This document shows positions 14,172-24,028 of a stretch of 64,000 bases of DNA, in pieces (within the stretch, counting starts at the first letter, position 1; each line of letters begins with the position of its first letter). This DNA is from Ferroacidibacillus organovorans. GTDB taxonomy: Bacteria; Bacillota; Bacilli; Alicyclobacillales; SLC66. The stretch covers positions 1 to 64,000 of the forward strand of contig NZ_LSUQ01000003.1 of the NCBI RefSeq assembly GCF_001642725.1, written 5' to 3'. The notes under the pieces were generated by a model. That model searched no databases, was not told the DNA's origin, and saw only the letters and a list, made by a program, of their open reading frames with translations. The translations under genes were made by a program, and so were the position numbers.

Positions 14172-15623
14172 CTATACCACCTGAACGGTTCCGCGCAGTG
14201 AAACAGTAATCACACCGCGTCGCTCAATAAACTGGCGCATCGCGTCAATCGCTGAACAAGTAAGGTTTTTTCGGTTTATTCCATATTTTTCAGGCACGCC
14301 CTGCATCGTCACGAACGCCGCACGGTATGTGCGATCCAGGGTGACTGGCCGATCATTGACAAAGAGATTCTGGATGCGCGTTCCCGCTGGGTTCTCAATT
14401 TTGATAAACATTCTCATGCCAAGGCAGCGTTTTACATAACCGCCCATCTGACCGTACGGATTACGGGCAAACGTCTTTTCTAAATTCTCTTCCAACATTT
14501 CCATCAGTTCCCGCCCCGTGATCTCGACGGTTGAAACAGGGGGATTGGTGGGGATGATGTTCCACAGGTCATTGAGTGTAATCGGCCCCGGCGGGATGGG
14601 CGCCCCGTATCGCCAGCCATTCGAGAACGCGAGCTCTGTCTCGGCAACCTCAAGGATTGATTCCAACAGCAGATTGTCCATCGTCGTCTCGAGTTGTGCG
14701 TAGCGGTGGAGCGCCGTTTCCGTCTGCCCCACGATCGCTTGGAGCATTTCTTGATGCGGCAGAAGCGCCTGCTCTACAAGAGCTGCCACCTCGCGGTCGG
14801 GCGGGATGCTCTGCGCCACCTCGATGAGCGTGTGGCGATAATCGCGAATTTTGCCGTCTTCTATCTCCAACTCCAACTGCCCCATAAAAGAACCGTGACA
14901 ACCGGATTGGATGAGAATGGTGTCGTTGATGCTGACGGGATGATAGAGGCGGTTGTGCGTGTGGGCACTCAGTAAGACATCAATGCCATCGATCTCGGCT
15001 GCCATCTCTGCCTCAAGTGGAAATCCGAGGTGAGAGAGGACAACGACGAGATCGACCTGCTCTTCATTTCGCAGTGCAGCAATTTGGGCTGGTAATTCAT
15101 CCTTGCCCATCGTAAATCGAATGCCAGTAGAAAAGTGGGGCGGCATCGTCTTGTCGATGATGTGACAGGCGATTCCGATGATACCGATCTTTAGGCCAGC
15201 GCGCTCGATCACGGTATGGGATGGGAAGACACGTTGATTGCTTTCTTTGGCGTAACAGTTGTTTGCAAGGACGGGATAGTGAAGTCGCTCCGACAATGTT
15301 TGGAATTGGCTTGGACCATAGGCGAAATCCCAGTGTGCTGTCATTCCGTCTATCAAAAGTGCATTGAGAATCGGGACGAGCGCTTCCCCTTTGCTTGCGA
15401 CTGCAGGGTAGGTGCCGTGAAACGTGTCACCGTTGTCAAGGACAAGCACCCCGTCTGGATTTTGCGCTCGCGCGGCTTGAATCAGCGTGGCAATTCTGGC
15501 GTAGCCTCCGACATTTCGATAGTGAGCAATGCCAGAATCCTCGAGGAACATTTCTTTGTGCAGGTCAATGTATGCGTGAATGTCGTTCAATTGCAGAATG
15601 GTAAGACGGGTGGTTTCACTCAT
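14172..15623 (-). CDS. 5'-nucleotidase/SoxB-like metallophosphoesterase, no signal peptide
   Basis: DIH, DNGDTFHG, AHWDF, LSH, AHTH, SNGWRYG; ATG 15623 with RBS GAGGGG. Confidence 0.85.
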   Translation of the reverse strand: MSETTRLTILQLNDIHAYIDLHKEMFLEDSGIAHYRNVGGYARIATLIQAARAQNPDGVLVLDNGDTFHGTYPAVASKGEALVPILNALLIDGMTAHWDFAYGPSQFQTLSERLHYPVLANNCYAKESNQRVFPSHTVIERAGLKIGIIGIACHIIDKTMPPHFSTGIRFTMGKDELPAQIAALRNEEQVDLVVVLSHLGFPLEAEMAAEIDGIDVLLSAHTHNRLYHPVSINDTILIQSGCHGSFMGQLELEIEDGKIRDYRHTLIEVAQSIPPDREVAALVEQALLPHQEMLQAIVGQTETALHRYAQLETTMDNLLLESILEVAETELAFSNGWRYGAPIPPGPITLNDLWNIIPTNPPVSTVEITGRELMEMLEENLEKTFARNPYGQMGGYVKRCLGMRMFIKIENPAGTRIQNLFVNDRPVTLDRTYRAAFVTMQGVPEKYGINRKNLTCSAIDAMRQFIERRGVITVSLRGTVQVV

Positions 15624-15743
15624 TTCAATGTCCCCTCGAATGAAATTGCCAAACGGATTATGGGTCAGGCAATGAAAGCTAGACCTAACTTGTCCATGTG
15701 AGTGAAAATTACACATGGATTGCGCAAGGTTGACGGCTCCTGT

Positions 15744-15834: not shown

Positions 15835-17274
15835 ATGATCCATCCGCGCTTGTGGCAGATGCGCCACTCAGAGAAGGCTTGGTATCGCTGGCTTGTGTTT
15901 TCGACCGCCGTGACGGGGACGTTCATGGTGAATGTGGATAGCAGCGTGATGAACGTAGCCTTGCCTGTCTTAGAGCGAGAATTTCACGCAGGGCCACAGG
16001 TTTTGCAGTGGGTCATTTCTGCGTATTTACTGGTGATCACGGGGATTTTGCCGATTGTCGGGAGTCTATCCGATCGGATGAACCGAAAGCTCGTGTTCAT
16101 CACAGGGGTTGTCATCTTTACAGGTGGATCGATGCTCTGTGCGTTCTCGGACAGCATCACGCAACTCATCCTGTTTCGCATCGTCCAATCAATAGGCGGC
16201 TCGATCATCATGGGAAACGTCATGTCGATTGTCTCCTATATCTTTCCGGCCGGTCAGCGCGGCCGACCGCTTGGACTTGTTGGAAGCGTTGTGGCGGCGG
16301 GAACGATCGTCGGACCTTCGGTTGGTGGCGTGCTCATTGCGGCGTACGGGTGGCGCTCGATTTTCTGGGTGAATGTTCCAATTGGGATCGTATCGGTTGT
16401 CGCTTCCGTTTTGGTCATGATGCCGATTCGCTCCGATAGACCCGCGCGAAGATTTGATGTTATGGGTTCGATCCTGTTTTTTGTGGGGATTGTCAGTCTC
16501 ATGCTGTTTATCTCTGAAGGACAGACCTGGGGCTGGATGAATCTTCGGAGTTTGACTGCGTTCATTCTGAGCGTCGCGATGCTGTCAGCCTTTGTATGGC
16601 AGGAGTTAACGTCGAAGAGTCCTGTGATCGAATTGTCGCTGTTTCGATTGCCCAGATTTGTCCTCGGAAATCTAACAGGCTTCTTGTCGTATGTGATGAT
16701 CATGTTCCCTGGCTTTCTTTTGCCACTCTATATGCATGATGTGTTGCGTATCCCCACGGTGCACATTGGTCTTTTACTCACGCCGCAGGCGATTAGCATG
16801 ATTTTGTTTTCACCTGTGGGAGGCTGGCTGGCGGATCGATTTGGCACGAATTGGCCTGCAGCCATCGGACTGTTTCTCGGCACACTCGGATTAACGCTCA
16901 TGGCGTTTTTAAATTCGGCTTCGTCTTACACGGACATTGTGGTTGCCCTGTCCGTGTTTGGACTCGGGATGGGGCTCTTCACGTCTCCCAATAATGTGTC
17001 TGTCCTCGAGAGTGTACCGATTGAAAAATCCGGACTCACCGGGAGTTTGATCGCGACAGTCAGAAACTTTGGCCGCGTAGTGGGTGTGGCGCTCACCGTA
17101 TTGTTTCTCCAAATATCGGGGAATGATTTGCAGTCAAGCGCTGGCTTTGCACACGCGTCTTCCTTTGCATTTCGAATGGGGGTGATCATTGGGATCGCAG
17201 GCACGGTGTTAACGATGACACGGTTTCTTGTGCGTTTAAAGAAATTGCGTGTTGCGCATGAAACGAGTCGCTGA
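15835..17274 (+). CDS. DHA2-type MFS transporter (14 TMS)
   Basis: DSSVMNVALP, WVISAYLL, GSLSDRMNRK, GWRSIFWVNVPIG. Confidence 0.92.
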   Translation: MIHPRLWQMRHSEKAWYRWLVFSTAVTGTFMVNVDSSVMNVALPVLEREFHAGPQVLQWVISAYLLVITGILPIVGSLSDRMNRKLVFITGVVIFTGGSMLCAFSDSITQLILFRIVQSIGGSIIMGNVMSIVSYIFPAGQRGRPLGLVGSVVAAGTIVGPSVGGVLIAAYGWRSIFWVNVPIGIVSVVASVLVMMPIRSDRPARRFDVMGSILFFVGIVSLMLFISEGQTWGWMNLRSLTAFILSVAMLSAFVWQELTSKSPVIELSLFRLPRFVLGNLTGFLSYVMIMFPGFLLPLYMHDVLRIPTVHIGLLLTPQAISMILFSPVGGWLADRFGTNWPAAIGLFLGTLGLTLMAFLNSASSYTDIVVALSVFGLGMGLFTSPNNVSVLESVPIEKSGLTGSLIATVRNFGRVVGVALTVLFLQISGNDLQSSAGFAHASSFAFRMGVIIGIAGTVLTMTRFLVRLKKLRVAHETSR

Positions 17275-17362
17275 AGGGATCGCGGTAACATGTTGCAATG
17301 GGATGTTGCGAGCGGATTTGCTGTATACTTGTAGCACATCATTTCATCCTGGGGGAATTGAC

Positions 17363-17701
17363 ATGGCAAAGTTGGCATTTTGGATTACAGCAGGACCAGA
17401 ACTAGAGGCAAAAGCGCTCTCTGGTATCGTACTAGCCAGTCGTTTGAAGAAGAATCGCGGACAAGATGTGGAGGTGTACTTCTTTGGGCCTGGCGTGGCA
17501 CTGGTCGGTAAGCCTAGTCCAAAAGTGGCAGAGGCGCTCGCGATGCTCCGAGATGCAGAAGTGCACGGCGGGTATTGCCCGTTTAATGCGGAGCAATTTG
17601 GCGTTGAGGAGGCAGTATCTGGCGCAGGCTTACATGGAGAGGCGGCCGGAGAAGCGCTCATTCGGTTAGTGGAAGATGGGTATCAGGTTGTCGGCTATTA
17701 A
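17363..17701 (+). CDS. DsrE family protein
   Basis: VEVYFFGPGV, single Cys (YCPFNA), C-terminal GYQVVGY; RBS GGGGGA. Confidence 0.8.
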   Translation: MAKLAFWITAGPELEAKALSGIVLASRLKKNRGQDVEVYFFGPGVALVGKPSPKVAEALAMLRDAEVHGGYCPFNAEQFGVEEAVSGAGLHGEAAGEALIRLVEDGYQVVGY

Positions 17702-17732
17702 GAATGAGAGACAGCGACGCGCGGAGGCCGAC

Positions 17733-18344
17733 ATGAAATTTAAATTCAGGATCTACTCGGACTACATCTGACCGTTTTGCCACATCGGCAACGGGATTGT
17801 CGAAGCGTTAAAAAAAGAATTCGAGATTGAAGATGAATGGGTCAGCTATGAGATTCATCCCGAGACGCCAAAAGAAGGTGTGCGGCTTGAGGAGCGATTT
17901 CCGGCTGCGTCATTAGAGCAGATGCAGGGAAGGCTCAGGGCATCGGGGAAAGCGTTGGGACTCTCTTTTGGGAATTTGGAGCTTTTGTCAAATTCGAGGT
18001 TGGCGCTTATGGCCAGTGAGTTTGCGCGCGATAAGGGTGTGTTCCACGATTTCCACCAGCGAATCTTTGACGCGTATTTTCGCGCGTGTGAAGATATCGG
18101 GAAATTGGAAGTGTTGCTCTCCATGGCGGGTCAGTGCGGCCTTGATCCTGATGAATTGAAAACTGCACTGGCGGATCTCCGCTATATGCCAAGACTTGAG
18201 CAGGCACAGCGTGAAGGCGCAAAGCAGGGTGTGACCGGAACACCGACGTTCATCATCAATGACACGTATAAAGTGGTGGGGGCGCAACCTTTTGAGGTAT
18301 TCCGCAACGCTCTCCATAAAATTTCGGAAGGGCATGTGGAGTGA
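17733..18344 (+). CDS. DsbA/FrnE-family thiol-disulfide oxidoreductase, putative selenoprotein (UPFC)
   Basis: RBS GGAGG; ATG 17733 in frame with ORF 17880; YSDYI-TGA(17769-17771)-PFC; YEIHPETP; GVTGTPTFII; GAQP. Confidence 0.85.
17785..17803 (+). promoter_or_regulatory. Candidate bacterial SECIS hairpin
   Basis: Stem TCGGCAA/TTGTCGA with loop CGGGA starting 21 nt after the UGA. Confidence 0.55.
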
Positions 18345-18418: not shown

Positions 18419-18486
18419 TTGACGAGAGCGTGGATGTGTATGTAAAATAGACCGTGATGTTAGCACTCCCTTGCGTTGAGTGCTAA
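18419..18486 (+). promoter_or_regulatory. sigA promoter and CIRCE (HrcA operator)
   Basis: TTGACG (18419) and TAAAAT (18443); perfect TTAGCACTC-N9-GAGTGCTAA at 18460-18486. Confidence 0.95.
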
Positions 18487-18551
18487 CGCGTGGTGTATCC
18501 CCACGACAAAGGATAAAAACCCCATGGGGACGAATGAAAGGAGTCATTTTT

Positions 18552-20432
18552 ATGCAAAAAACAGAGTTTAAAGCGGAGTCAAAGCGGTTATTAGAAATGA
18601 TGATTCACTCGATTTATTCTAATCGAGAAATTTTCTTGAGGGAATTGATTTCAAACGCGAGTGACGCGATTGATAAAATTTACTACAAAGCGCTGACGGA
18701 TAGCAACCTAACGTTTGCTAAGGAAGATTATTATATCAAGGTGGAAATCGATAAAGACACTCGCACATTGTCGATTGTGGATACCGGGATTGGCATGACG
18801 CGGGATGAACTGGAAAACAATTTGGGCGTGATCGCTCAGAGTGGATCGCTGTCCTTTAAGCGTGAAAATGAGGCAAAAGATGGGCATGACATTATCGGGC
18901 AGTTTGGCGTCGGGTTTTACTCAGCGTTTATGGTTGCCGAGGAAGTCACGGTTATCACACGGGCGCTTGGGAGCGATTCTGCATACGTTTGGAAATCTGC
19001 GGGTGTGGATGGATACACGATTGAATCAGGACAAAAGGCTACGGTTGGCACAGAAATCCTTTTAAAGATCAAGGAAAACACAGAGGATGAGAATTACGAG
19101 GATTATCTGGATGAGTATCGTGTGCGGTCGATCATAAAAAAATACTCCGATTTCATCCGCTATCCAATCAAGATGGAAGTGACGCGGCAGCGGCCAAAGG
19201 AAGGCAGCGAAGGGGAGTTTGAAGAATACCGGGAAGAACAAACGATCAACAGCATGGTTCCGATTTGGAGAAAGAATAAAAACGAGCTCACCGATGAGGA
19301 CTATGAAGCTTTCTATATGGAGAAGCACTACGGCTTTGACAAGCCGTTAAAGCATATGCACATCAGCGTCGACGGCGCTGTGAGCTATAACGCCATTTTG
19401 TATCTGCCGGAGACGACCCCTTTTGACTTTTATACAAAGGAGTATGAAAAAGGTTTAGAGCTCTACTCGAATGGTGTGCTCATCATGAGCAAAGCGCCTG
19501 ACCTACTCCCGGACTATTATCGCTTCGTCAAAGGGATGGTTGACTCAGAGGACCTGTCGCTCAACATTTCTAGAGAGATTTTGCAGCAAAACCGGCAACT
19601 CCAGTTGATTGCTAAAAACATCAAGAGCAAAATTACCAGTCAACTGCAGAACATGTTGAAAGATGAGAGAGACAAATACGAAGTGTTTTATAAGTCGTTT
19701 GGTACACAGTTGAAGTATGGCGTTTACAGTGACTATGGGAGCAACAAAGACACGCTCCAGGATCTTTTGCTGTTTTACTCATTAAAAGAAGAGAAAATGA
19801 TCACGCTGGATGAATACGTTTCGAGTATGCCAGAAGATCAGAAATACATTTATTATGCGACAGGCGAAACGTATGAGAGAATTGAGAAATTGCCGCAGAC
19901 AGAGCTTGTGGTGGATAAAGGGTATGACATTCTCTGCTTTATTGAAGAAATCGACGAGTTTGCGATCAAAATGTTGATGAACTATAAAGAGAAAGAGTTC
20001 AAGTCGGTCGCGAGCGGCGATTTGGGGATCGAAGCGGACGAGGACAAGGAACAGACGGAACAAGAGGCGCAGGAGAATAAGGCGCTGTTTGACGAGATGA
20101 AAAAAATTCTGGGTGACAAGGTGAAAGCGGTCCGCATCTCCAAGCGGCTGAAAAATCATCCGGTTTGTCTCACGGCGGACGGCGATTTGACGATCGAAAT
20201 GGAAAAAGTGCTGAATGCGATGCCGAACAGTCAACAAGTGAAGGCGGAAAAGGTGCTGGAAATCAACAGCAATCACAGTGTGTTTCAATCGTTGCGCGCA
20301 GCGCTTGAGCAGGATCAGGAGAAATTGAGCCTCTATACCAACCTGCTGTACCATCAAGCGTTACTCATTGAGGGACTGCCGATTCAGGATCCGGTGGACT
20401 TTACAAACGATATTTGTAAGATCATGGTGTGA
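18552..20432 (+). CDS. htpG: Hsp90 chaperone HtpG
   Basis: [52 protein letters not shown]. Confidence 0.97.
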
Positions 20433-21070: not shown

Positions 21071-24028
21071 ATGGGCCATGTTCAGTTCAATCTTGATGGA
21101 GAGTTACGGCAAGTGCCAGAAGGTACGCGAATCCTAGATTATCTGATCGCTCAAGGCATTGAGCACCCGCATATTTGTTACTCAGAGGTGCTGGGACCGA
21201 TTCAGAGTTGCGACACCTGCATGTGCGAAGTCAACGGACAAACGGTGCGGGCTTGCGCGACAGTTCTAGAGGATGGCATGAAGGTACGCCTTGCTTCCGC
21301 GCAAGCGAAAGAGGCGCAGCGCGATGCGATGGATCGCATCTTGGAAAATCACCTGTTGTATTGTACCGTGTGCGACAACAACAATGGAAATTGCCGTGTC
21401 CACAACACGGCAGAAATGTTGGACGTGAGTCACCAAACGCGCCCATTTCGCCCCAAAGGGTATGACGTGGACATGTCGAATCCATTTTATCGCTATGATC
21501 CTGATCAGTGCATCCTCTGTGGGCGCTGTGTGGAGGCGTGCCAAGATCTGCAAGTCAATGAGACGCTCAGCATCTCGTGGGAAGACGACATGCCGCGCGT
21601 GTTGTGGGACGGTGGAAAACCGATTGACGAGTCGTCATGCGTCTCTTGTGGCCACTGTGTTACGGTGTGTCCTTGCAATGCGCTGATGGAGAAATCGATG
21701 CTTGGCGAAGCGGGTTACATGACAGGGATGTCGGACGAATTGTTACATCCGATGATTCAACTGGTCAAAGAGGTTGAGCCTGATTATAAGACCATTTTTG
21801 CAGTGTCTGAAGTTGAGGCGGCCATGCGCGAAACGCGGACGAAAAAAACGAAGACGGTCTGCACGTTTTGTGGTGTCGGCTGTAGTTTTGAAGTGTGGAC
21901 GAAGGGGCGCGAAATTCTCAAGATTGAGCCCGTAGAGCAGGCGCCTGTCAACAGTATCTCTACATGCATTAAAGGTAAATTTGGCTGGGATTTTGTGAAT
22001 TCGAACCAGCGACTCACGTCGCCCCTGATTCGCAAGGGGGATGCATTTGTTGAAGCGTCCTGGGACGAGGCGCTTGACTTGATCGCAAAAAAGATGGGAC
22101 AGATCAGAGATACGCATGGCTCGAATGCGCTTGGCTTTATCTCTTCTTCTAAAATGACGAATGAAGAGAATTACCTGATGCAAAAGCTGGCAAGGCAAGT
22201 GTTTGGAACGAACAACGTGGATAACTGTTCGCGCTACTGCCAGTCTCCCGCCTCTTGGGGGTTACAACAGACGGGTGGAATAGGCGGCGACTCGGGAACG
22301 ATTGAGGATATCGCTGCTGCGGGGTTGGTCATTCTCGTTGGCTGTTCACCGGCAGAAGGCCATCCGGTATTGGCAACGCGCATCAAGCGCGCGCACAAAT
22401 TGCACGGGCAAAAACTGGTTACGTTTGATCTTCGGAAACACGAAATGGCGGAGCGCTCGGATCTTTTTGTGCGGCCAAAGCAAGGCACGGATTATGTATG
22501 GTTAGCGGCTGTCACGAAGTACATCATCGATCAAGGTTGGCATGATGAAGCGTTTATTCATCAGCACGTCAATGGATTTGATGCGTATTCGGAACTGCTG
22601 GAGTCCTTTACACTCGAATTTGCCGAAAAGGAAACGGGTATTTCAAAAGAAACGCTCATTCAGGTTGCGACAATGGTTCATGAAGCGGACGGAACGGCGA
22701 TCTGTTGGGGCATGGGCGTTACGCAAAATGTGGCGGGTTCGCATACGTCTGGCGCGATTGCAAATTTGCTGCTTGTGACGGGCAACATGGCGCGCAAAGG
22801 CGCAGGCGCTTTTCCACTGCGCGGACACAACAATGTTCAAGGCGCGAGTGACATGGGAACGATGCCGAATATTTTCCCGGGGTATCAACCGGTGACGGAT
22901 GGCGATATCAGGGCGAAATTCGAAAAAGCGTACGGGGTGTCGATTCAGGCTCAACCAGGGTATGACAACATCCAAATGCTAGAGGCCATCGAGCGCGGTG
23001 AGCTTAGAGGAATGTACATTGCAGGGGAAGACATGGCGTGGGTTGACGCGAACTCGAATCATACGCAAGAGATGCTTAAGAACGTCGAGTTCTTGGTTGT
23101 CCAGGAAATCTTCTTGACGACGACCGCGCAGTTTGCAGACGTGATTCTTCCGGGGACGCCATCCCTTGAAAAGGATGGAACATTCACCAACACAGAGCGG
23201 CGTGTTCAACGCTTGTACAAAGCGCTGGAACCGCTCGGTGACAGCAAGCCAGACTGGGAGATCTTTATGGAACTGGCGCGTCGCTTGGGGTTTGCTTGGA
23301 ACTACGCGCATCCGCGTGAAATTTTTGCGGAAATGGCCAGTTTGACACCGTTTTTCTCGGGATGCAATTACGATGGATTGGCGGACTGGGGAAGTTTTCA
23401 CTGGGGATCGCCTGATGGGGAAAATACACCTGTTCTGTATTTGAACGGATTCAATTTTCCTGACAAAAAGGCGCGCTTTGCATTGTTCGAGTATGTTGCG
23501 CCTGTAGAGTTCCCGGAAGAGTTTGATCTTACGCTTGACAATGGGCGTCTTCTCGAGCAATTTCATGAGGGCAACCTTACGGGCAAAGTGGCTGGTATTC
23601 AAGATAAACTGCCTGAGGTTTTTGTGGAGATCTCGCGCGAGCTGGCGGAGCAACGCGGTGTTGAAACAGGAACGTTTGTACGGCTTGAGTCACCGTATGG
23701 GGCGGTCAAATTAAAAGCGATTGTCACGGATCGCGTACAAGGCCAGACGGTGTATATGCCGATGCACTCGTCCAGCCACGAAACGGCCGTCAATATGTTG
23801 ACGGGGAACATCTTTGATGTGAAGACGCACACGCCAGCGTATAAACAGGCGAAGGTGCGGATGCAGGTGTTAAAGGCAAAAGGGGACAGTCCACTGCCGC
23901 GCAACAATCCGCGCAATGCCGTGCGAAAGCCACAGATGGGTGTGCAGGTTGAGCGGAAGTGGGCGCGTGCCGACTATCAGCCGATTGCGGATGTCAATGT
24001 ACCCGATTCTTATAAGGGGGCGCGTTAA
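21071..24028 (+). CDS. fdhF: Formate dehydrogenase alpha subunit-like molybdoenzyme (YjgC/YrhE type) with fused Fe-S domains
   Basis: N-terminal 2Fe-2S and 4Fe-4S Cys motifs, CTFCGVGC, SRYCQSP, LRGHNNVQG, EKDGTFTNTERR. Confidence 0.92.
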   Translation: MGHVQFNLDGELRQVPEGTRILDYLIAQGIEHPHICYSEVLGPIQSCDTCMCEVNGQTVRACATVLEDGMKVRLASAQAKEAQRDAMDRILENHLLYCTVCDNNNGNCRVHNTAEMLDVSHQTRPFRPKGYDVDMSNPFYRYDPDQCILCGRCVEACQDLQVNETLSISWEDDMPRVLWDGGKPIDESSCVSCGHCVTVCPCNALMEKSMLGEAGYMTGMSDELLHPMIQLVKEVEPDYKTIFAVSEVEAAMRETRTKKTKTVCTFCGVGCSFEVWTKGREILKIEPVEQAPVNSISTCIKGKFGWDFVNSNQRLTSPLIRKGDAFVEASWDEALDLIAKKMGQIRDTHGSNALGFISSSKMTNEENYLMQKLARQVFGTNNVDNCSRYCQSPASWGLQQTGGIGGDSGTIEDIAAAGLVILVGCSPAEGHPVLATRIKRAHKLHGQKLVTFDLRKHEMAERSDLFVRPKQGTDYVWLAAVTKYIIDQGWHDEAFIHQHVNGFDAYSELLESFTLEFAEKETGISKETLIQVATMVHEADGTAICWGMGVTQNVAGSHTSGAIANLLLVTGNMARKGAGAFPLRGHNNVQGASDMGTMPNIFPGYQPVTDGDIRAKFEKAYGVSIQAQPGYDNIQMLEAIERGELRGMYIAGEDMAWVDANSNHTQEMLKNVEFLVVQEIFLTTTAQFADVILPGTPSLEKDGTFTNTERRVQRLYKALEPLGDSKPDWEIFMELARRLGFAWNYAHPREIFAEMASLTPFFSGCNYDGLADWGSFHWGSPDGENTPVLYLNGFNFPDKKARFALFEYVAPVEFPEEFDLTLDNGRLLEQFHEGNLTGKVAGIQDKLPEVFVEISRELAEQRGVETGTFVRLESPYGAVKLKAIVTDRVQGQTVYMPMHSSSHETAVNMLTGNIFDVKTHTPAYKQAKVRMQVLKAKGDSPLPRNNPRNAVRKPQMGVQVERKWARADYQPIADVNVPDSYKGAR

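Follow-up and report, generated by a model that had tools for sequence, protein, structure and literature searches.

Does a TGA that follows the first 12 codons of a reading frame end a gene, mark a broken one, or specify an amino acid? The 64,000-nucleotide stretch of Ferroacidibacillus organovorans DNA analyzed here (positions 1 to 64,000 of contig NZ_LSUQ01000003.1, hereafter the window) raises this question at positions 17733 to 18344, where a frame resembling DsbA/FrnE-type thiol-disulfide oxidoreductases is interrupted once, by a TGA at 17769-17771. Sequence comparisons across related and distant genomes make it very probable that this locus is a conserved selenocysteine (Sec)-encoding gene, equipped with a functional-looking selenocysteine insertion sequence (SECIS) and residing in a Sec-competent genome. 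An original prediction, made from the letters of the window, had preferred a selenoprotein over a pseudogene or readthrough as Cys or Trp, and that preference is now strongly supported; none of the outcomes named in advance as refuting it (no Sec machinery, Cys codons in all close orthologs, a sequencing error) was observed.

The gene elements named in that prediction are all present in the sequence. Direct reading places a GGAGG ribosome-binding site at 17723-17727 on the + strand, which carries every feature of the gene described below, and an ATG at 17733 five bases downstream. Translated with TGA as U, the frame from this ATG reads MKFKFRIYSDYI (12 sense codons) -TGA-PFCHIG; it then joins an open reading frame (ORF) beginning at 17880 and ends with the TGA at 18342-18344, the TGA at 17769-17771 being its sole interruption. 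With the terminal stop included, the full coding sequence of this predicted selenoprotein occupies 17733-18344, and the product has 203 residues. By comparison, the ORF list made with translation table 11 holds only 17880-18344 for the locus, a frame of 154 amino acids with a GTG start.

Read through the TGA, the product contains a complete DSBA-like thioredoxin domain. Pfam DSBA (PF01323) matches it at an E value of 3.2e-28 (99.3 bits against a cut-off of 25.6), spanning residues 7-194 and profile positions 4-190 of 191. The nearest solved structure is FrnE of Deinococcus radiodurans (PDB 5cnw and 5cp1; E 5.7e-16), with product residues 2-197 aligned to FrnE 11-218 in 5cnw. The TGA had been predicted to fall exactly on the nucleophilic Cys, and in this alignment U13 indeed stands opposite the first Cys of the FrnE C-P-W-C, so that the redox center here reads U13-P-F-C16. 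The partner residue, Cys16, is encoded by TGC at 17778-17780, would act as the resolving Cys of U-P-F-C, and is invariant across all orthologs aligned. Farther along, GVTGTPTFII of the product aligns with the G-x-P loop of FrnE, GITGVPFFVL; the Thr170-Pro171 codons within it (18240-18245) presumably form the cis-proline loop, as general knowledge of the thioredoxin fold would have it. Because the FrnE alignment begins at residue 2, there is no room for a signal peptide, and the protein is therefore read as cytoplasmic. We accordingly regard the product, with high confidence, as a 203-residue DsbA-fold thiol-disulfide oxidoreductase of the FrnE/COG2761 type that lacks a signal peptide and carries Sec13-Pro-Phe-Cys16.

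A stop codon in one genome says little, and its fate in orthologs says much more. A search of 61 related genomes returned nine matches at 55-100% identity, from six genera and two families, each with exactly one TGA within the match, and a script check placed that TGA at the identical codon, S-D-Y-I-U-P-F-C, in all nine close orthologs. In one genome (G013), a 55%-identical fragment was ended by a contig edge and did not cover the site; all other matches in these genomes were at or below 39% identity and lacked an in-frame stop. Species-representative genomes gave 21 loci, 20 of which were examined, with one weak partial match (L073) set aside. The same codon is TGA in 17 of the 20, from Bacillota, Desulfobacterota, and Actinomycetota; the bearers include Alicyclobacillus tolerans, Tumebacillus lacus, and Pseudalkalibacillus caeni, together with metagenome-assembled genomes (MAGs) of Smithella, Syntrophaceae, Sedimentibacter, Gaiellales, and other Actinomycetota. 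Two of the 20 carry a Cys codon instead (TGC in L062, TGT in L072). In the remaining locus, on a 1.5-kb MAG contig labelled Ignavibacterium (L064), the TGA is present and one extra base behind it throws the sequence out of frame, through either misassembly or decay of the copy.

Both states also occur closer to home. Among 401 genomes of the class, 10 match at an E value of 1e-40 or better, seven with TGA (the window's genome counted) and three with Cys; of the six class-level matches that add to the loci above, three have TGA, and one genus (g100) holds both states. After duplicates were merged by contig coordinates (L053 with L025, L074 with L054), the totals came to 27 distinct TGA loci across three phyla and five Cys loci with TGC or TGT (L062, L072, and L077-L079). 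Full-length Cys forms are present in the protein database as well, for example from Smithella (P0011) and Tumebacillus algifaecis (P0017). Across the 12 codons before the TGA and 36 after it, the protein is conserved and synonymous sites vary; such conservation of the upstream codons shows that translation crosses the TGA. Near-identical DNA is present in mine-drainage and related metagenomes, and three public runs, each from a different outside study (X5, X6, and X9), have contigs that span 17769-17771 with no difference listed. In one of them (X5), T replaces C at 17768, which leaves Ile unchanged in the codon preceding the TGA; a further run (X7) lacks coverage of 17745-17860 and is uninformative on the TGA. 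None of the public runs listed for the locus was an RNA run.

If UGA is to be read as Sec, the machinery must be available, and searching the genome assembly (98 contigs, 3.03 Mb, 96.8% completeness) recovered selA, selB, selD, and tRNA-Sec. The selA match lies on contig C34 (567 bits against a cut-off of 268) and selB on C4 (372 bits against 242). Directly after selA on C34, selD (388 bits against 125; C34:8759-9679, locus L011:1441-2560) contains one in-frame TGA spanned by the NCBIfam match; it translates as LTDKSG-U-GCKIGP and is therefore read as a selenoprotein gene itself, with a hairpin of GGC loop whose stem begins 12 nt after the UGA. The tRNA-Sec is on C21 (Rfam 63 bits against a gathering score of 47), where ARAGORN calls tRNA-SeC with anticodon TCA. 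As had been noted, no sel gene lies in the window: the above-cutoff sel matches are all on C34, C4, and C21, with none on C3, the window's contig. The original prediction also considered Sec use uncommon for such an organism, a view that fails for this lineage, as selA is present in 16 of 18 genomes of the window genome's own family, the two genomes without it being 60% and 65% complete. In the wider set, selA scores above cut-off in 29 of the 61 related genomes, and a TGA ortholog occurs in 9 of the 29 selA-positive genomes versus 0 of the 32 selA-negative ones, values given as counts rather than as a test because related genomes are not independent.

The remaining requirement is a signal in the message. 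A hairpin with a 7-bp stem and a CGGGA loop, beginning 14 nt after the UGA, had been singled out as SECIS-like, and it is found at 17785-17803, with arms TCGGCAA (17785-17791) and TTGTCGA (17797-17803) around the loop at 17792-17796. Thirteen bases separate the UGA from the first stem base, which we take to lie within the distance range of bacterial SECIS elements. In an alignment of 25 distinct Sec-form sequences, each covering 66 nt from the TGA, RNAalifold returned a single helix, the same 7-bp stem, pairing columns 17-23 with 29-35. Of all stem cells, 97.7% are paired, versus 20-47% when the 3' partners are slid by one to three columns. Five pairs are constant, one varies on one side, and one (columns 18 and 34) covaries, being C-G in 19 sequences, G-C in two, U-G in two, and unpaired in two.

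Variation at synonymous sites separates RNA from protein constraint. Within columns 4-36, the only invariant third-codon positions (25/25 sequences) are 21, 30, and 33, all in the stem; the fourth stem third-codon position, column 18, is the one that covaries with its partner. Third-codon positions of the loop and flanks vary, and the loop GG at columns 25-26 is invariant. Counted over 28 Sec rows, 24 form all seven pairs and four form six of seven. The five Cys forms, taken as a control, form 7, 6, 5, 5, and 3 pairs of seven, so that the stem is degraded in four of five, and some of the changes that break it are purely synonymous (CTT to CTG, GTC to GTT). The invariant synonymous sites and the compensatory pair support a constraint on the hairpin at the RNA level, and with it the SECIS-like role that had been predicted.

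Scanning the assembly for in-frame TGAs flanked by open, coding-like sequence produced 12,763 raw candidates. The first genome-wide filter lost both positive controls (the DsbA-like gene and selD) and was dropped and rebuilt; the Cys-motif filter left 43 candidates, both controls included. Twenty of the 43 were run through Pfam and 21 left aside, the other two being the controls. A domain extended across the TGA in four of the 20, stood after or before it in eight, and was matched nowhere in seven; the last was pseudogene-like. The four with a spanning domain are an AhpC/TSA, peroxiredoxin (Prx)-like protein (C53:13635-14168, +, E 6e-27, GTW-U-PNC), a thioredoxin (C11:33621-33929, +, E 1e-23, DW-U-PGC), a protein with two thioredoxin-like domains of AhpF-N/glutaredoxin (Grx)-like type (C76:8341-9024, +, E 1e-23, TPT-U-PYCP), and a small glutaredoxin, NrdH-like (C24:6584-6829, -, E 7e-7, QAT-U-VRC). 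For each of them (loci L080, L081, L082, and L084), orthologs in relatives also have a TGA inside the match. These four are likely selenoprotein genes.

All six TGA sites, those of the DsbA-like gene, selD, and the four candidates, are followed by a 5-7 bp hairpin that starts 11-17 nt downstream of the UGA and is capped by a GGN loop; with the closing pair opened, GGN becomes NGGNN, which matches the CGGGA loop of the DsbA-like gene. Used as the sole filter, the hairpin kept 95 of 12,760 raw candidates, and the six sites rank within the top 13 of these by local coding score, while four other high-ranking hairpin-selected candidates showed no Pfam domain across the TGA. The scan covered sites with a Cys motif or a GGN-loop hairpin, with 24 candidates run through Pfam, and is not exhaustive. 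The pseudogene-like candidate is a serine recombinase frame (C59:12195-12980, -, locus L087) with Resolvase and Recombinase domains, ending at 261 residues. Its TGA falls within the Recombinase domain at a non-Cys position, and we rejected it as a selenoprotein in favor of a probably decayed mobile-element gene.

Several observations count against a Sec-decoding gene and temper the weight of individual results. The gene structure, its family, the conservation of TGA and hairpin, and the existence of the Sec machinery are directly seen, and from them we infer Sec insertion, SelB binding, a cytoplasmic location, and the physiological substrate. None of the NCBIfam selenoprotein models recognizes the product; the best, NF041057 (Rcas_1661 thioredoxin-like (seleno)lipoprotein), scores 50 bits against a cut-off of 190, and its match covers residues 82-195 only. 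The hairpin is not singled out by thermodynamics alone: folded singly, the 62 nt give z = -0.74, with another pairing in the minimum-energy structure. Conservation of the stem is in part protein-level, as five of seven pairs are constant and the stem overlaps the codons for I-G-N/K-G-I/L-V-E/D, and the two compensatory G-C sequences (L029 and L031) belong to the same family and possibly reflect one event. The stem can also persist without a UGA, since the Cys form with TGC from a Smithella MAG (L062) retains an intact hairpin; it is placed among near-identical Sec forms, which would fit a recent Sec-to-Cys change. Lastly, the genome background for the shared hairpin pattern is 860 of 118,234 TGA trinucleotides (0.73%), and since the pattern was fitted after the six sites had been seen, any joint probability derived from that figure is overstated.

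How well do other explanations fare with the same data? Near-cognate or suppressor reading of the UGA as Cys or Trp would yield an ordinary CxxC or WxxC DsbA-like protein, and it could draw on two full-length metagenome records (P0005 and P0006) that show W at the Sec position, as well as on the Cys forms of the family that function elsewhere. The W records, however, are most simply explained as gene-caller output under a TGA=Trp code, apparently so on contigs of about 1 kb, and this genome ends genes with TGA, the stop at 18342-18344 of this very gene among them. Untargeted readthrough would not need selA, yet the TGA orthologs are confined to selA-positive genomes; nor would it account for the complete set of Sec genes and the conserved, correctly spaced SECIS-type hairpin. 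We consider such readthrough very improbable.

Slightly less probable again is that the true product is the 154-amino-acid ORF from the GTG at 17880, the upstream 49 codons being an untranslated leader. This is the form that gene callers give for the window's genome and for Ferroacidibacillus organovorans: the window's own protein on record is the 154-residue form (17880-18344, +), and so is a Ferroacidibacillus organovorans 'hypothetical protein'. A protein starting there, however, would be missing the opening strand and helix of the fold as well as the entire redox center; the Pfam match to the long form starts at residue 7; the codons around the TGA (12 before, 36 after) would have no reason to be conserved as protein with varying synonymous sites; and the GGAGG would stand ahead of an unused ATG at 17733. 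A nonsense pseudogene or an assembly or sequencing error, suggested by a stop 12 codons into the gene that in a single sequence would resemble a fresh nonsense mutation, is the least probable of all and is already refuted by the conservation data, with the same TGA in 27 distinct loci of three phyla and the frame intact on both sides, damage in one locus only (L064), and the TGA in independent contigs from three studies.

Gene callers take the Sec codon for a stop, and public annotation has the window protein and its relatives only in shortened versions that start after the TGA, with 154, 179, 183, or 186 amino acids (P0002, P0003, P0014, P0036, and P0043). The entries with W at the Sec position would be a second kind of misannotation. 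Truncated entries labelled 'hypothetical' or 'DsbA family', all devoid of the active site, come for example from Ferroacidibacillus organovorans, Alicyclobacillus ferrooxydans, and Alicyclobacillus sp. SO9. One of them, 'hypothetical protein ATW55_04380 [Ferroacidibacillus organovorans]' (P0003), was seen by eye to match the last 154 residues of the ortholog in a genome of the same genus (G001). Functional or comparative analyses that use the truncated records are wrong for this gene.

Under Sec decoding, translation would start at the ATG at 17733, and at the UGA of 17769-17771 the hairpin at 17785-17803 would recruit SelB with Sec-tRNA(Sec), so that Sec is inserted in place of a stop. SelB, tRNA-Sec, SelA, and a SelD that itself contains Sec would be supplied from elsewhere in the genome. 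The terminal UGA at 18342-18344, which has no such element, would act as a stop. The mature protein may then alternate between selenol/thiol and selenenylsulfide states, and by analogy with Deinococcus FrnE it most likely reduces or isomerizes disulfides in the cytoplasm under oxidative or metal stress.

The family is already known to use Sec, and this gene is a further member missed by standard annotation. The original statement that Sec-containing DsbA-like proteins exist agrees with the catalogued COG2761 UXXC family: the Sargasso Sea study of 2005 first presented a 'DsbA-like protein' (COG2761, UXXC, nine sequences) as a family of selenoproteins (PMC1088965), members are tabulated for Anaeromyxobacter, Desulfovibrio, and Desulfotomaculum (PMC1794560), a 2016 survey of >5,200 genomes counts 45 genes of the family in 41 organisms and puts it in the bacterial top 20 (PMC5029168), and a 2026 review has the entry 'DsbA-like protein form 1, PF01323, UxxC' (PMC13188914). 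The same survey describes Sec use as about equally common in aerobes and anaerobes (PMC5029168). Our gene shares with the family, as these sources portray it, the PF01323 domain, UxxC with Sec as the first residue, a downstream SECIS with loop guanosines, and coexisting Cys homologs. It differs in its host from the Deltaproteobacteria, Clostridia, marine metagenomes, and Asgard archaea named for the family there. Assignment here rests on the domain, the motif, and the COG-type naming of close relatives, whose JGI names ('predicted DsbA family dithiol-disulfide isomerase') agree with the COG2761 description. The DxxUP motif that the review entry gives for form 2 also fits D-Y-I-U-P, but form 2 is described there as a crotonase-family protein, and here the domain of 203 amino acids stands alone. 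In full-text literature searches, no study of selenoproteins in Alicyclobacillaceae-type acidophiles or in Ferroacidibacillus turned up, the latter judged by titles and the starts of abstracts.

Among solved structures, FrnE (DR_0659) is the closest. It is described as a disulfide reductase/isomerase of the cytoplasm that has a CP(W/F)C motif and is induced by cadmium, radiation, and desiccation (PMC8945050). The two proteins share the SD-x-x-C/U-P-W/F-C-x-IG context, the G-x-P loop, and the lack of a signal peptide; FrnE has Cys where the window protein would have Sec. FrnE is also longer, its 260-residue chain ending in a CxxxxC tail (239-244) that helps regenerate the active site, a tail that, according to the same text, the FrnE proteins of S. 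roseofulvus and D. maricopensis also lack (PMC8945050). The window protein ends at residue 203, equivalent to FrnE 218, without the tail; its last Cys lies at or before residue 135, with none after. Measured against the FrnE subfamily (cd03024), it has the CP(W/F)C-type DsbA-like domain, cytoplasmic by prediction, and lacks the C-terminal CxxxxC. Periplasmic DsbA and BdbD belong to the same fold superfamily and give weak matches (E 1e-4 to 7e-4) that cover the C-terminal half only. Unlike the window protein, which begins directly with the first strand of the fold, they are exported oxidases with signal peptides and DsbB or BdbC partners.

Together with selD and the four candidates, the gene suggests a selenoproteome of unusual composition. 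Six selenoproteins seem to be encoded in the genome; SelD aside, they are all thiol oxidoreductases, and no formate dehydrogenase (Fdh) with Sec is among them. Standard annotation apparently misses every one of their genes. The five molybdopterin-oxidoreductase genes of the genome, in the window and on C84, C9, C30, and C6, are all free of in-frame stops. The Fdh alpha gene of the window (21071-24028, +), which had been predicted to use Cys, is accordingly uninterrupted and reads CSRYCQSP at what we take to be the Sec-equivalent site. The formate dehydrogenases of the genome thus seem to be only of the Cys type. FdhA is given as the most widespread bacterial selenoprotein in the 2016 survey (PMC5029168), which makes a Cys-only Fdh in a Sec user unusual. 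One tentative proposal, to which we attach slightly less than even confidence, is that this acidophile lineage keeps the Sec apparatus solely for a cytoplasmic thiol-redox network, consisting of the DsbA/FrnE-like, thioredoxin, Prx-like, AhpF-N/Grx-like, and NrdH/Grx-like proteins plus SelD, while every Fdh and molybdoenzyme is of the Cys type. Selenium, if so, would serve redox defense in metal-rich acid habitats, in contrast to the usual trait built around formate dehydrogenase.

These results leave unchanged what is known of the Sec insertion mechanism and of which protein families use Sec. They add a spore-forming lineage from acidic, metal-rich habitats as a well-supported case of Sec use, a selenoproteome that is apparently independent of formate dehydrogenase, and a compact, easily recognized SECIS consensus that could serve clade-wide reannotation.

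The genes around the locus offer a few separate observations. Across the ortholog neighborhoods compared, there was no conserved operon hinting at a partner: an MFS gene and a DsrE-like gene are shared beside the ortholog only in a genome of the same genus (L024), HtpG is shared in Alicyclobacillus tolerans (L025), and a weak MFS match near another ortholog (L066, 28% identity) was not counted. In the window, HtpG, an Hsp90-family chaperone, is encoded at 18480-20432 (+) after the selenoprotein gene (NF003555, 714 bits). The terminator scan called no + strand terminator between the selenoprotein stop and htpG, and a promoter-like site lies ahead of htpG at 18419-18448; promoter-like and terminator-like sites are as numerous as in shuffles. 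On the other side, a DsrE/DsrF-like ORF (17249-17701, +; Pfam E 3e-5) ends 31 bases before the selenoprotein start codon, and farther upstream lies a SoxB-like metallophosphoesterase/5'-nucleotidase gene (14172-15716, -; TIGR04486 345 bits, below the cut-off of 550). The DsrE-like and SoxB-like neighbors point to sulfur-compound metabolism nearby.

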